A stretch of 13,814 bases of DNA from a virus. Lineage: Duplodnaviria > Heunggongvirae > Uroviricota > Caudoviricetes. The first letter of the stretch is position 1, and each line of letters opens with the position of its first letter. Shown here one piece after another: positions 2,394-7,037 of this stretch. Made by a program: the position numbers and the translations under genes. Where the stretch lies: IMG/VR virus record IMGVR_UViG_2695420871_000010. One strand, written 5' to 3'. Below the pieces are notes generated by a model. It was not told the origin of the DNA. It was given only the letters and a program-made list of their open reading frames with translations, and did no database searches.

Positions 2394-2603
2394 ATGCGTG
2401 AAATAAATGAAGATCGCGTAATCCGTGAGGATGAATGTCGTAAGTTAACTGGAGTGTGCCGCACTACACGTTACGAACTGGAGAAAAAAGGGCGCTTTCC
2501 GTCACGTCTTAATCTGGGCGGTCGTTCTGTAGGGTGGCTGCTGTCCGAGGTTATGGAATGGGTTAAAAGCCGGGATCGCATTAATTCAGGTAAGGCAGTG
2601 TAA
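2394..2603 (+). CDS. alpA: AlpA-family phage transcriptional regulator (69 aa from internal Met)
   Basis: …RVIREDECRKLTGVCRTTRYELEKKGRFPSRLNLGGRSVGWLLSEVMEWVKSR matches the AlpA/MerR-like HTH pattern. The track start at 2307 is a GTG embedded in an RBS-like taagagg with no spacer, so the in-frame ATG at 2394 is preferred; start is uncertain. Confidence 0.7.
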   Translation: MREINEDRVIREDECRKLTGVCRTTRYELEKKGRFPSRLNLGGRSVGWLLSEVMEWVKSRDRINSGKAV

Positions 2604-2948
2604 AGGGGAGCATATGACACATAAAACAAAGGCGACCTGGGGCGGTCGCCAGTTTGGAAACACTAAACATAAGCATGTCAATGATAGCCGCTATCAGGCT
2701 GGTGGGCAATGCTATCAGTCTGTTTCAGTGCGTTGCCATAACTGCGAAGCTCTCTCCTTTGATGAGTATTCTTTAAGGTACTTCTCAAGGGCAAAAGAAC
2801 ACGGCGCGAATCGTTCTGATTCATGCTCTTTCTTTCTGCGTCGTCTTTTTCGTGCAGGTGATGTTTTTTTGGTTGATTCTTCGTTGGTCATTGTGTGCGC
2901 CTGTAAAGCAATGCGCCGGAGTTCCTCACACCACGGCGCTGATAGTGA

Positions 2949-3254
2949 TTATTCTGATTCTTTGGCCTTGCGGCGCTGGAGTTCTTCGCGTGCAACGGTG
3001 ATAAGCTGCCCGATTTCCTCCGCTGCCTTGATGCCGATTTGTTCGACATTAGCTAGGGCATCCAGTGAAGACACAAGGGGATTTTCTCCACTTCCTTCTG
3101 CCTGGCGCCTGGCGATCTCACCGCGTACAGCCGTAACTATAAAATTCGCTTTAGTTTCCCCTGGCTGTAGGGATGCCTCAATGCCACTCACTACTTCATG
3201 TGGAAATCTGGCATTCAGTTGCTGTGACTTATTGTTAACAGAACTCCTGGACAT
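2949..3254 (-). CDS. Small ribbon-helix-helix-like DNA-binding protein, candidate island repressor (101 aa)
   Basis: Internal ATG at 3254-3252 is preceded by a strong RBS (GGGAGGTG, 6-nt spacer); the longer track ORF has no RBS. N-terminus …QQLNARFPHEVVSGIEASLQ… has a beta-strand then helix pattern like Arc/CopG. Divergent from the replication operon, with operator repeats in between. Confidence 0.5.
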   Translation of the reverse strand: MSRSSVNNKSQQLNARFPHEVVSGIEASLQPGETKANFIVTAVRGEIARRQAEGSGENPLVSSLDALANVEQIGIKAAEEIGQLITVAREELQRRKAKESE

Positions 3255-3287
3255 GTTTGCACCTCCCATTAATAACGGGATGCAGTG

Positions 3288-3343
3288 TAATACAAAAGTG
3301 AATACCAAAAAAGACTTGAAATGGTATTCACCTAAATGTAATG
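3288..3343. promoter_or_regulatory. Operator-like cluster: three copies of GTGAATACCA (direct, inverted, direct) in the divergent promoter region
   Basis: gtgaatacca at 3289-3298, its reverse complement tggtattcac at 3313-3322, and gtgaatacca at 3334-3343; located between the minus-strand RHH gene (start 3254) and the plus-strand operon (start 3455). Confidence 0.55.
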
Positions 3344-3454
3344 TGAATACCACAAGTGCTGATACATGCAATTCAGCAATTGAAACGACGAAGCCCCGCA
3401 AGTGTCGTTACCACTCGCAGGGCTTCTAACCAACAACGTAAACGAGGAGCCGTT

Positions 3455-3652
3455 ATGGTTGCCGTAAATCATATACCACACCTTGTACACACACAAACGG
3501 CCTTTGTGTGGCGTTTTCTGGCCCTGAGTGCCGGAGAATCTCAAATCATCCACGTAACCGCCTGGACGGAACGCGAAGCGCGTAACCGTTGCCCGTCAGG
3601 TTGTGTTGCTGTATTCGCCGCCCGTATTCGTCAGGAGGTGTGCCATGCCTGA
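3455..3652 (+). CDS. Small protein (65 aa), possibly Icd-like host cell-division inhibitor
   Basis: ATG at 3455 with GAGGAG RBS 5 nt upstream. Sequence …TAFVWRFLALSAGESQIIHVTAWTEREARNRC…VFAARIRQ is reminiscent, from memory only, of Icd-like proteins of P4-like islands. Overlaps the next gene start. Confidence 0.4.
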   Translation: MVAVNHIPHLVHTQTAFVWRFLALSAGESQIIHVTAWTEREARNRCPSGCVAVFAARIRQEVCHA

Positions 3653-3965
3653 CATGACCAATTACCAGTACCTGATTAATCCGCATTTTAACTGTGAGCA
3701 TGATATTGCTAAAAAGGTTTATTCCGCTGCGGATGGGGCTACTGACAATATATCAATGGCTGTTGCGTCAATTGGTAGCCTGATGTGGCATGCGTCAGAA
3801 AATGAGGAATATGACGAAAAGGCTATGCGCATTGACATGGGTAATATTGGCTTGTTACTGGCAATGCTTGGGCAGTTTGATATTTCGTTACGGTGCACCA
3901 TTGAAAATGCCACAGATGCATTAAATGCCATAGAGAAAGCGAATACTGATTCAAATCTGAGATAA
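3645..3965 (+). CDS. Hypothetical protein (106 aa)
   Basis: ATG at 3645 with AGGAGG RBS about 7 nt upstream; 8-nt overlap with the preceding gene suggests translational coupling. No family recognised. Confidence 0.5.
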   Translation: MPDMTNYQYLINPHFNCEHDIAKKVYSAADGATDNISMAVASIGSLMWHASENEEYDEKAMRIDMGNIGLLLAMLGQFDISLRCTIENATDALNAIEKANTDSNLR

Positions 3966-3971
3966 ATAATC

Positions 3972-4271
3972 ATGAGAACGTATTTATCTGGCTTGACTGC
4001 CAGCGGTTATGCACACCCCAAAATTATCCCCGGCGCTATTTATCTGGATAAGAACGGTAACAGAGTAACGGTAAAAGAACTGATGTTTGACCGTGTGTAT
4101 TTTATTCGTGATGGCTATTCATTTCATAGTTCGCTGAACGTGGAGATCTTTATTAGCAGATTCAGGCGGGAAATCCCGCTTTCCAGAAATAACCATGTGT
4201 CATGTATGGATGTTGATAAAAAACTACAGGAACTGAAAAACATGATTGCCGCGTGGAGAGAGCAGAAATGA
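3972..4271 (+). CDS. Hypothetical protein (99 aa)
   Basis: ORF in the operon; weak RBS. Its TGA stop (4269-4271) overlaps the ATG of the replication gene (4268-4270) as ATGA. Confidence 0.4.
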   Translation: MRTYLSGLTASGYAHPKIIPGAIYLDKNGNRVTVKELMFDRVYFIRDGYSFHSSLNVEIFISRFRREIPLSRNNHVSCMDVDKKLQELKNMIAAWREQK

Positions 4272-6058
4272 AAAAAGCGCCAAATTTAAAACACCAGCCG
4301 CGTGACAAAATGACGGAAGTCATCATTTTTGCGGGTAATGATGCGTGGGCACATGCGAAGCAGTGGCAGGAACAGGACGGGCGACTGGCTGGCGACAGCG
4401 TGCCTCCTGTCTGGCTTGGAGAACAACAACTTGCCGAACTGGATAAGCTGCAAATCGTACCGGACGGACGCTATCGGGTGCGTCTCTACCAGGCGGGGTT
4501 ATTGCGTCCGGGGCTTGTTAATACCATCGGGCAGAAACTGGCAGCGGCAGGTGTCAGGGATGCTGATTATTACCCTGAAGGAATGCACAGCCAGAAACGG
4601 GAGAACTGGCGCGAATATCTGGAACGTGAACGGGCAGAGCAGGCGGAAAAGAAAAAGGTAGTTGAACTGCCTGTAAAGAAAAAAGAGCGGGTAAAAGACG
4701 ATAACGCTTCATCACTGGCGCTTAACCAGATGGGAGCAAGTCAACGCGGCGAAGTTCTCCTGGCACATTATGGCGGTGAACTGGCGATTCATGCTGACTC
4801 TGACACTGTTCACCATTACAACGGCGTTGTATGGGAGCCAGTACAGGATAAAGAATTACAGCGAGCTATGGCACAGATTTTCATTGATGCGGAGATCAGC
4901 TATTCGCAGAACGCCATTAAATCGGCGGTCGATACCATGAAGTTAAGTTTGCCTGTAATGGGGAATACAGCCCGTAACCTGATTGGATTCAGTAACGGGG
5001 TATTTGATACCAGAACAGGTAATTTTCGGGAGCATAACAAAAACGACTGGTTGTTAATTGCCAGTGAATTACCTTTCAGCCCACCAGCAGAGGGGGAAAC
5101 GCTGGCAACACATGCGCCGAATTTCTGGAAGTGGTTACGCCGTTCGGTGGCTGAGAATGACCGCAAGGCGGATCGCGTACTGGCTGTATTATTCATGGTG
5201 CTGGCGAACCGGTACGACTGGCAGTTATTCATTGAGGTAACAGGTCCAGGGGGAAGTGGTAAAAGCGTGATGGCGGAGATTTGCACCATGCTGGCGGGTA
5301 AGGCCAACACAGTATCGGCAAGCATGAAGGCGCTGGAAGATGCAAGGGAACGCGCGTTAGTGGTTGGCTTTTCGCTGATTATCATGCCGGATATGACCCG
5401 CTACGCTGGTGATGGGGCAGGGATTAAGGCCATTACAGGCGGTGACAAGGTGGCAATTGACCCGAAACACAAAGCCCCCTACTCAACGCGTATTCCGGCA
5501 GTAGTGCTGGCGGTTAACAATAACGCCATGTCATTCAGTGACCGCAGCGGGGGGATCTCACGTCGTCGGGTGATATTCAATTTTTCGGAAGTTGTACCGG
5601 AGAACGAACGCGACCCCATGCTGGCAGAAAAAATAGAAGGAGAGCTGGCGGTTGTGATTCGCCACCTGCTTACTCGTTTTTCTGACCAGGACGAAGCTAA
5701 ACGCCTGCTGTATGAGCAGCAGAAATCAGAAGAAGCTCTGGTGATAAAACGCGAGGGCGATTCGCTGGTGGACTTCTGCGGCTATCTCATGTCGTCGGTA
5801 ATGTGTGATGGTCTGTTAGTGGGTAATGCCGAAATTATTCCGTTCAGTCCGCGCAGGTATCTTTATCACGCCTATCTGGCATATATGAGGGCACACGGAT
5901 TCGGTAAACCTGTAACACTGACGCGCTTCGGTAAAGATATGCCGGGGGCAATGGCGGAATATGGCAGGGAGTATATGAAACGGAAAACGAAGCACGGTTT
6001 GCGTTCAAATGTGACCCTGACAGAGGATTCAGAAGACTGGATGCCATCATGTGCATAG
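4268..6058 (+). CDS. Replication initiation protein, P4-alpha-like: D5_N-type domain plus SF3 helicase/NTPase (596 aa)
   Basis: Walker A GPGGSGKS followed by …VVGFSLIIMPDMTRYAGDGAGIKAITGGDKVAIDPKHKAPY… (P4-family primase/helicase C-terminal region). Start set at ATG 4268 (GGAGAG RBS, 6-nt spacer), not the track start 4253. Iterons lie immediately downstream. Confidence 0.85.
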   Translation: MKKAPNLKHQPRDKMTEVIIFAGNDAWAHAKQWQEQDGRLAGDSVPPVWLGEQQLAELDKLQIVPDGRYRVRLYQAGLLRPGLVNTIGQKLAAAGVRDADYYPEGMHSQKRENWREYLERERAEQAEKKKVVELPVKKKERVKDDNASSLALNQMGASQRGEVLLAHYGGELAIHADSDTVHHYNGVVWEPVQDKELQRAMAQIFIDAEISYSQNAIKSAVDTMKLSLPVMGNTARNLIGFSNGVFDTRTGNFREHNKNDWLLIASELPFSPPAEGETLATHAPNFWKWLRRSVAENDRKADRVLAVLFMVLANRYDWQLFIEVTGPGGSGKSVMAEICTMLAGKANTVSASMKALEDARERALVVGFSLIIMPDMTRYAGDGAGIKAITGGDKVAIDPKHKAPYSTRIPAVVLAVNNNAMSFSDRSGGISRRRVIFNFSEVVPENERDPMLAEKIEGELAVVIRHLLTRFSDQDEAKRLLYEQQKSEEALVIKREGDSLVDFCGYLMSSVMCDGLLVGNAEIIPFSPRRYLYHAYLAYMRAHGFGKPVTLTRFGKDMPGAMAEYGREYMKRKTKHGLRSNVTLTEDSEDWMPSCA

Positions 6059-6372: not shown

Positions 6373-6618
6373 GTGACAACGAAGCACGCCAAAAAACCAC
6401 AATCTCACGCCCTTGATTTGACAGAACACTGGCTGAGGGTGGCGATAAAAATCATCGACCGCAACGCCGGGGAAGGATACGCGAAAGCACATCCCGAACT
6501 GATAAGCGCATTCATGACCACGACGGCGGCAAACTTTGCCACGCTGACAGAACGGGAGATTGCCGAAGCGGAACAGGTGACAACCATCAACGTTAAAACC
6601 GGAGAGCAGACAGCATGA
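6373..6618 (+). CDS. Hypothetical protein (81 aa), GTG start
   Basis: GTG at 6373 with GAGGT RBS 7 nt upstream; TGA stop overlaps the ATG of the next gene (ATGA at 6615-6618). No family recognised. Confidence 0.45.
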   Translation: MTTKHAKKPQSHALDLTEHWLRVAIKIIDRNAGEGYAKAHPELISAFMTTTAANFATLTEREIAEAEQVTTINVKTGEQTA

Positions 6619-7037
6619 CAGCACAGATAGCGGCTTACGGGCGGCTGGTGGCTGACCCGCAGTTAAAGACCACCAGCAAGGGTACGCAAATGACGATGGC
6701 GAGTATGGCGGTTCCCCTGCCGTGCAGCCAGGCAGATGACGGAACGGCGACGATATGGTTATCCGTCCTGGCGTTTGGCAGACAGGCTGACGCACTGGCA
6801 AAGCACCAGAAAGGCGAGCTGGTGAGCGTGGCGGGTAACATGCAGGTAAGCCAGTGGACAGGCCAGAACGGAGAAACGCGGCAGGGCTGGCAGGTTATCG
6901 CAGACAGTGTAATCAGTGCCAGAACGGCGCGACCGGGCGGTAAAAAAGGCCAACAGGGGCAGGCCACTGATGCACTGAACAGGGCCAAACAACAGGCGGG
7001 GAATGATGATCCGTACGGGGATAACATACCGTTTTAA
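6615..7037 (+). CDS. Single-stranded DNA-binding (SSB)-like OB-fold protein with SSB C-terminal tail (140 aa)
   Basis: OB-fold-like core (…GRLVADPQLKTTSKGTQMTMASMAV…WLSVLAFGRQADALAKHQKGELVSVAGNMQVSQWTGQNGETRQGWQVIAD…), a Gly/Gln-rich linker, and an acidic C-terminus …DDPYGDNIPF resembling the E. coli SSB tail (…DDDIPF). Confidence 0.7.
   Translation: MTAQIAAYGRLVADPQLKTTSKGTQMTMASMAVPLPCSQADDGTATIWLSVLAFGRQADALAKHQKGELVSVAGNMQVSQWTGQNGETRQGWQVIADSVISARTARPGGKKGQQGQATDALNRAKQQAGNDDPYGDNIPF

Follow-up and report, generated by a model that had tools for sequence, protein, structure and literature searches.

The module at positions 2949-3652 of the viral record IMGVR_UViG_2695420871_000010 (IMG/VR; Caudoviricetes) was analyzed in the context of the whole stretch of 13,814 nucleotides, referred to here as the window, and of related loci. 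The window contains a satellite island of about 10 kb of the Gram-negative phage-inducible chromosomal island (PICI) type. In the module a minus-strand gene for a protein of 101 amino acids (aa) faces a plus-strand operon with replication functions. Our analyses point to the 101-aa protein, a YlcI/YnfO-family member with a predicted ribbon-helix-helix (RHH) fold, as the probable maintenance repressor of this satellite, acting on four sites located between the two transcription units.

The 101-aa gene (2949-3254, minus strand) and the operon are separated by a gap of exactly 200 bp (3255-3454), for which the earlier note had reported a 10-mer in direct, inverted and direct orientation. This was borne out, since GTGAATACCA is present in three exact copies, all located in the gap and nowhere else in the window: at 3298-3307 (plus strand, site s1), 3322-3331 (minus strand, site s2, reading TGGTATTCAC on the plus strand) and 3343-3352 (plus strand, site s3). 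The mean count expected by chance is 0.03, and none of 200 dinucleotide shuffles reached three copies. Together, the copies form two perfect inverted pairs; the third one ends beyond the 3280-3350 probe that the earlier note had suggested. An inverted pair TGGTATTCAC-N9-GTGAATACCA was also seen in an unrelated viral contig from an IMG/VR metagenome (L035, 4384-4412), which carries no homologue of the protein.

The region was compared in 27 loci from about ten genera, including Escherichia, Klebsiella, Enterobacter, Erwinia, Pantoea, Photorhabdus and Xenorhabdus. The rightward promoter of the window consists of the -35 element TTGAAA (3316-3321, plus strand), located in a TTGACx column conserved in all loci, and the -10 element TAATGT (3339-3344, plus strand), which follows after 17 nt in a conserved TAAnnT column. 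Site s2 fills the spacer between both elements, and s3 overlaps the -10 element together with the predicted rightward start. Site s1 is located within the spacer region of a leftward promoter, for which the hexamer TATTAC (3287-3292, minus strand; TATAAT, TATACT or TATAGT in other loci) is the candidate -10 element, as suggested by a conserved block of columns in the 27-locus alignment. A degenerate fourth half-site, CGGGATGCAG (s0, 3276-3285, plus strand), matches TGGTATTCAC in six of ten positions and lies over the predicted leftward start; most other specificity types, which are described below, hold a perfect copy at this position.

The same layout was found in all 27 loci: four half-sites, spaced 21-24 bp from centre to centre, form two inverted pairs, each of which brackets the -10 element of one of the divergent promoters. 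Starting from the repressor start codon, the order is s0, a minus-strand -10-like TATAAT/TATACT, s1, TTGACx, s2, TAAnnT (after 17 nt) and s3. A consensus scan calls the equivalent rightward promoter in L020 (TTGACG-17-TAACAT) and L003 (TTGACA-18-TAAAGT). A repressor-operator layout analogous to that of Stl had been proposed earlier for the window. The operator part of this proposal held, as the 10-mers behave like operators of the protein, recurring in one layout and co-varying with its putative beta strand, and they overlap the core promoter of the operon; homology to Stl was not found. The fourth site, the second, presumably autoregulated promoter, a minus-strand hairpin and the cassette nature of the region are additional to that proposal.

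The strong ribosome-binding site claimed for the 101-aa frame was confirmed by a Shine-Dalgarno motif read from the sequence, GGAGG at 3262-3266 on the minus strand, 7 nt upstream of the ATG; its complement CCTCC is kept in related loci. The protein belongs to the YlcI/YnfO family (NCBIfam NF041551, 60.3 bits compared to a cut-off of 30, residues 9-50), and its RefSeq homologues carry the same name. About 126 clusters of 96-111 aa occur across Enterobacterales, and an exhaustive profile search yielded only 97 family representatives at 50% identity, among which short forms (55-70 aa) are numerous. AlphaFold with a deeper alignment (mean predicted local distance difference test, pLDDT, 91.4) models an extended N-terminus, helices at 19-28 and 35-54 and one long helix at 59-100; this superseded a first run with a shallow alignment, in which residues 8-16 appeared as a low-confidence helix. 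The model shows the strand-helix-helix fold of RHH proteins (MetJ/Arc/CopG), its N-terminal 50 residues superpose on RHH domains, and we delimit the RHH-like domain to residues ~8-54, followed by the long C-terminal helix. Family members give sub-threshold Pfam matches to Arc, RHH_1, PSK_trans_fac, CB_ParB_C and HicB_lk, all of which we take to be RHH families. The designation RHH-like is thus accepted on the predicted fold, membership by sequence being unproven. A LexA/S24 self-cleavage domain was not detected in the protein, and family and structure searches returned YlcI/YnfO and RHH matches and no homology to Stl (Rpr). A reading of the C-terminal part as helix-hairpin-helix, raised by a match to Hef (E 0.007), was discarded, since the model contains a single long helix. 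One family member, P0171 (122 aa), has two tandem RHH-like domains in one chain and would correspond to a covalently linked "dimer".

The 10-mers and the protein vary together. Within a locus all copies share one sequence, and between loci this sequence changes in step with residues 8-17, the hypervariable segment of an otherwise conserved protein. The segment QLTTVRV goes with GTGTGTTTCA in E. coli and in Photorhabdus/Xenorhabdus, [KR]QISIRI with TGTGATTCAG in E. coli and Klebsiella, and QSLTARI with GTGTAAGAC in Enterobacter and Klebsiella. In Mantel tests the putative beta strand correlates with the sites at r = 0.68, the C-terminal domain at 0.26. Between specificity types the site columns are 48% identical compared to 70% for non-site columns, and the C-terminal half of the protein is 88-98% conserved across types. 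The association was also found starting from DNA alone: a search of IMG/VR for the s2-s3 pair yielded ten contigs of satellite size, and in nine of them the same N-terminal domain is encoded at a distance of about 70 bp.

Beta strand and sites move between islands as a block. L014, L018 and L021 are 90-100% identical to the window on both flanks and 35-55% identical between ~3120 and ~3420, showing mosaic boundaries that define an exchangeable specificity cassette (3120-3420) with repressor codons 1 to ~45, both promoters, the four sites and most of the hairpin. Among 5426 complete E. coli genomes, 57 carry the cassette type of the window. Since three to four separate sites change in concert, a shared reader encoded within the cassette is indicated, even though linkage contributes to the co-variation, and the RHH domain is the only credible coding sequence inside it. 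By exchange of strand and sites, at least nine "immunity" types would have arisen.

We also considered that another factor binds the repeats, such as AlpA, the Icd-like protein encoded by the first gene of the operon, the primase (with the repeats as origin iterons) or a repressor of the helper phage. AlpA does activate downstream genes in the model island EcCICFT073, the PHROGs label of the Icd-like families is "transcriptional repressor", and iterons are present in PICI origins. The site type is, however, independent of every other island gene, namely those for integrase, AlpA, primase and the Icd-like protein. According to the partner table, loci sharing the operators of the window are 98% identical in the N-terminal domain, their integrases are 23-43% identical and an AlpA match is undetectable; in two of three such loci the primase is unrelated, with only 40% identity. 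Conversely, L018 and L021 have primases that are 98-99% identical, and L018 an AlpA that is 85% identical, but they carry other operators and N-terminal domains of just 47-49% identity. One and the same Icd-like allele is found with three operator types. A host or helper factor would leave the co-variation of the adjacent beta strand with the sites unexplained. Binding by another factor is thus very unlikely, and AlpA, the Icd-like protein and primase iterons were rejected as explanations of the repeats on the basis of the partner table.

The 101-aa gene is the first of two small leftward genes (3254-2949 and 2891-2715, minus strand). The second one encodes p58, according to its translation a very basic 58-aa protein (KKTSPARKRRRRKKEH...; 2715-2891, minus strand), which is predicted from the sequence to be co-transcribed with the repressor gene. 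An intrinsic-terminator-like hairpin with a T run (2631-2650, minus strand; seven pairs, six of them G-C, tail TTTGTTTTAT) is located at the end of this repressor-p58 unit. The pair could be read as a type II toxin-antitoxin system, with the RHH protein as antitoxin, p58 as toxin and the repeats serving autoregulation only. p58 has no family assignment, with neither a Pfam nor a toxin family match; it is conserved in EcCICFT073 and some other loci, and it is absent or replaced in many, so that a conserved adjacent toxin is missing. Furthermore, the best-matching sites lie on the promoter of the replication operon and not solely on the promoter of the pair itself. A toxin-antitoxin system is thus highly improbable, and it was rejected as an explanation of the repeats because p58 is not conserved.

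For the repressor reading, the layout suggests the following local mechanism. RHH dimers would bind the four 10-bp half-sites as two inverted pairs. Occupation of s2 and s3 would clamp the -10 element of the rightward promoter and switch off the operon encoding the Icd-like protein, DUF4222 and the primase, and with it replication. Occupation of s0 and s1 would clamp the -10 element of the repressor's own leftward promoter, occluding the repressor-p58 unit and limiting synthesis of the protein; weaker autorepression is expected in the window because s0 is degenerate. Residues 8-17, as putative beta strand, would set the sequence specificity and be exchanged together with the sites as a cassette of about 300 bp. 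Their hypervariability and co-variation with the repeats lend indirect support to a dimer whose paired strands would read the major groove. The protein probably binds DNA as a repressor, and its C-terminal helix may serve as a bridge between dimers in a higher oligomer.

A conserved RNA hairpin with a U-rich tail (hairpin 3390-3426, tail 3380-3389, minus strand) lies between the operators and the operon and is a candidate intrinsic terminator. Six of its pairs have changed on both sides, and 86.6% of the alignment cells are paired, compared to at most 50% in slid controls. These 86.6% were obtained by reading on the plus strand, where G.U pairs are missing and A.C accounts for 25 of the 27 mismatches; on the minus strand 99.0% are paired, including 25 G.U pairs. 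Since pairing is complete on the minus strand alone, where A.C becomes G.U, a function as 5'-untranslated element of the operon mRNA was ruled out. The minus-strand fold has a perfect 15-bp stem (-38 kcal/mol, z -5.8), and terminator-like calls were obtained on this strand in L020, L003 and L014. The hairpin is probably a one-way terminator. Searches of both strands against Rfam, for the window and for 14 related loci, gave no family for it.

The Icd-like gene (3455-3652, plus strand; 65 aa; NCBIfam NF033153, 64.8 bits; phrog_1743 and phrog_6196) starts with an ATG at 3455, preceded by the Shine-Dalgarno motif GAGGAG at 3444-3449. Within its first codons, the minus strand carries a TAnnnT hexamer 46-50 nt upstream of the hairpin in 16 of 16 distinct loci, including three in which the encoded amino acids differ. 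In the window this is TATGAT (3468-3473, minus strand), the candidate -10 element of a cis-antisense RNA, with a weak -35 element TTGTGT at 3491-3496; this promoter assignment is weak, as the element falls within conserved coding sequence. Transcribed from here, the putative RNA of about 80 nt would extend over the Icd-like start codon and Shine-Dalgarno motif as far as the hairpin, possibly acting as a second lock on Icd-like translation. The immunity-type RNAs C4 (RF01695) and isrK (RF01394) were not detected in the window with the gathering threshold, and between 3200 and 3700 not even with E <= 10; as a positive control, both were detected in the related island L031. Two further Rfam families were seen in other loci and not in the window, int-alpA RNA (RF02996) in L012 (6188-6255) and isrN (RF01396) in L003 (1907-2049).

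A long open frame (2614-3429, plus strand) begins just after alpA and runs antisense to p58 and the repressor gene and through the operators. In most relatives it stays open and joins the Icd-like open reading frame (ORF) in the same frame; in the window it ends at the TAA of TCTAACC (3427-3429), broken because the hairpin is 2 nt longer than in L001, a locus of the same operator type. In 13 of 21 loci the Icd-like frame is free of stop codons throughout the AT-rich gap (about 200 bp), compared to about 5-6 stops in each other frame. The long frame of EcCICFT073 (L030, 6767-8050) encodes a product of 428 aa whose N-terminus is weakly similar to Bro-N/Ant. Since this frame is open through the region in most loci, the minus-strand ORF might be regarded as its shadow, with the repeats lying inside a coding region. 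Against this, the minus-strand frame has its strong Shine-Dalgarno motif and its own terminator, its product is covered by a curated family model and is modelled with confidence as RHH, and its substitutions are dominated by codon position 3, with the highest synonymous fraction. Moreover, YlcI and YnfO homologues stand alone outside any such long ORF. A shadow ORF is hence most improbable. One stand-alone ylcI belongs to a DLP12-type prophage, where it adjoins the cos site and faces nohD (L001, 2610-2804 and 2805-3192); upstream of it one inverted repeat (ATCAATTAATACG / CGTCATAATTGAT) and no comparable four-site array was found.

AlpA is the established activator of induction in Gram-negative PICIs (PMC6092414). 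In EcCICFT073 induction needs AlpA, and AlpA over-expression alone is sufficient; AlpA activates downstream genes there, and a reporter fused to "ORF3", which may or may not correspond to the long ORF, depends on it (PMC6092414). Our preferred guess for how the switch opens is that helper-induced AlpA drives translated rightward read-through from alpA via the long frame. Such a transcript would be antisense to the repressor gene, cross the operators into the replication genes and bypass the repressed promoter; it would silence the convergent repressor gene, and the strand-specific terminator would permit its passage. The long frame and the one-strand terminator fit this bypass at least as well as an anti-repressor.

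In the model of the earlier note, an Stl-type switch, a helper-phage protein would bind the repressor, presumably at its C-terminal helix, and remove it from the operators. The position divergent from the replication operon and the missing LexA/S24 domain agree with this model, and the high conservation of the C-terminal half across specificity types would suit a common partner. The analogy is valid for position and function, as a leftward repressor faces a rightward replication module and SOS-type self-cleavage is absent in both. It does not extend to homology, since the fold differs, and Gram-negative PICIs are induced via AlpA (PMC6092414), which in EcCICFT073 suffices alone. An anti-repressor is not known. 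In addition, the repressor forms of EcCICFT073 and L031 have no C-terminal helix, and EcCICFT073 is nevertheless helper-inducible, which speaks against the helix as an obligatory sensor. We therefore regard an Stl-type switch as unlikely.

The 59-aa protein of EcCICFT073 (L030, 7474-7653; NC_004431, 1380473-1380652) is shorter by the C-terminal helix (about residues 51-92 of the window protein); the operators there are GTGGGCCACAC, and the hairpin stem-loop is the same as in the window. L031 (3701-4640; E. coli 2313, island at tRNA-Pro) likewise combines a short 59-aa YlcI-like repressor with GTGGCTGACA operators and the hairpin of the window. Between this hairpin and the Icd-like gene it carries the isrK (4204-4280) and C4 (4302-4389) RNAs, located inside an "ash family" pseudogene and upstream of a second Icd-like gene; thus, RNA immunity and the RHH module coexist in some islands.

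Several observations weigh against the 101-aa protein as the repressor reading these sites. No curated RHH family or PDB entry matched it at threshold in profile hidden Markov model, Pfam and PDB sequence searches run with the protein or with a profile of its N-terminal part, Foldseek returned nothing significant, and hhalign gave a weak match to Arc/Mnt (E 0.013 over 20 columns), in which KSQQLNARFPHEVV of the protein is paired, weakly, with KMPQFNLRWPREVL of Arc. The rightward promoter of the window scores only 8/12, below the threshold of the scan, and the leftward promoter is without a recognisable -35 element. The beta strand and the operators are 30-100 bp apart, and their co-variation is partly simple linkage. 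The C-terminal helix is not required for the layout, because the 59-aa forms keep the site spacing. Finally, the repressor may not be the primary decision point, because AlpA over-expression alone induces EcCICFT073 (PMC6092414).

Taken together, we place the protein in the YlcI/YnfO family and, by fold, in the RHH superfamily, and not in the Stl or C4 families. Its closest analogues appear to differ with the aspect compared: P22 immI in function and layout, P4 vis-eta/kil-alpha in gene order, lambdoid immunity regions in evolution and Stl in satellite logic. P22 immI encodes the RHH repressors Mnt and Arc, the divergent promoters P_mnt and P_ant and the sar antisense RNA. As in immI, a small RHH repressor gene is divergent from the operon that it would control, the operators overlap back-to-back promoters, and a candidate short antisense RNA covers the ribosome-binding site of the operon's first gene; the domain order of the protein, RHH at the N-terminus and a helix at the C-terminus, is that of Mnt. 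In contrast to immI, similarity to Arc/Mnt is marginal, four separated 10-bp half-sites take the place of one compact operator of 17-21 bp, and the operon encodes satellite replication functions instead of an anti-repressor. NikR-type RHH tetramers are comparable in that a pair of RHH dimers would occupy half-sites separated by about two helical turns; unlike NikR, the protein has no metal-binding domain, and bridging would fall to the single predicted helix, which is missing in the short forms. With the lambdoid immunity regions (imm434, imm21) the module shares the swapping of the DNA-reading part and operators as a mosaic cassette between near-identical elements; it differs in having an RHH instead of a helix-turn-helix repressor, of which the N-terminal domain alone is swapped and the C-terminal half stays constant.

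In P4, vis (an AlpA homologue) is followed by the Bro-type eta with an internal promoter, which ends in Kil, and by the primase, and translation of eta prevents termination (PMC10111431). The window resembles this order and that of P1 immI (c4-icd-ant), with alpA/vis, a long Bro-type ORF with an internal promoter, a small cell-division-inhibitor-like ORF at its 3' end and the primase (PMC10111431). In contrast to P4 and P1, the window has no C4, isrK or CI RNA, whereas the related L031 carries C4 and isrK at this place; the window has an opposite-strand protein repressor, with no counterpart in P4, and its hairpin likewise acts on the opposite strand.

The island is located between cspD and clpS, a site also occupied in L018 and L019, and has the hallmarks of a Gram-negative PICI: a size of about 10 kb, int, alpA, a primase module and some capsid genes, without lysis or tail genes. 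A tyrosine integrase gene (int, 746-1984) is followed by alpA (2394-2603, plus strand; Pfam PF05930, 1.7e-16) and the divergent module. The rightward operon encodes the Icd-like protein, a 106-aa ORF, DUF4222, a D5-type primase and a single-stranded DNA-binding protein (SSB); its first ORFs (3455-3652, 3645-3965, 3972-4271 and 4253-6058, the last being the primase) overlap or abut, and SSB is encoded at 6615-7037. A terminator-like hairpin with a T run (CACACAAACGGCCTTTGTGTG GCGTTTTCTG) was noted within codons 12-22 of the Icd-like gene (3490-3520, plus strand) and also in L014, L020 and L031; it could cause polarity when this ORF is untranslated. The sole morphogenesis gene of the island (7697-9577) encodes a 626-aa protein in which a ClpP-type protease is fused to a major capsid protein, with no portal, terminase or connector genes after it. 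Downstream of the island clpS and clpA are followed by type I-F CRISPR repeats, two of which were located beyond clpA at 13599-13626 and 13659-13686 (Rfam CRISPR-DR4, 50.1 bits each). The module of the window is also present in EcCICFT073. Parts of the 1.7-kb region around it match 1,561 of 5,426 complete E. coli genomes, and the region is unmatched in a phage collection (0 of 50,697 phage records).

It has been described as unclear whether a repressor exists in Gram-negative PICIs (PMC6092414), and the PICI literature treats this as an open question. In the literature searched on YlcI/YnfO, on RHH proteins and PICIs and on repressors of EcCICFT073 or of capsid-forming PICIs (cf-PICIs), we found no description of the protein or its operators. 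The conserved repressor-operator module that separates alpA from the replication genes also occurs in the model island, which makes the repressor question directly testable. As a tentative and rather doubtful generalization, Gram-negative PICIs including EcCICFT073 may have a dedicated YlcI-family RHH master repressor with immunity cassettes, embedded in a three-layer switch of protein, antisense RNA and translation-coupled AlpA read-through. If true, such a switch would explain how a helper-induced activator overrides repression without an anti-repressor. The discrete specificity types may act as, and would then define, satellite immunity or compatibility groups, and they would supply ready-made orthogonal repressor-operator pairs. 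For the uncharacterised YlcI/YnfO family, maintenance repression of a satellite would be the first proposed function.

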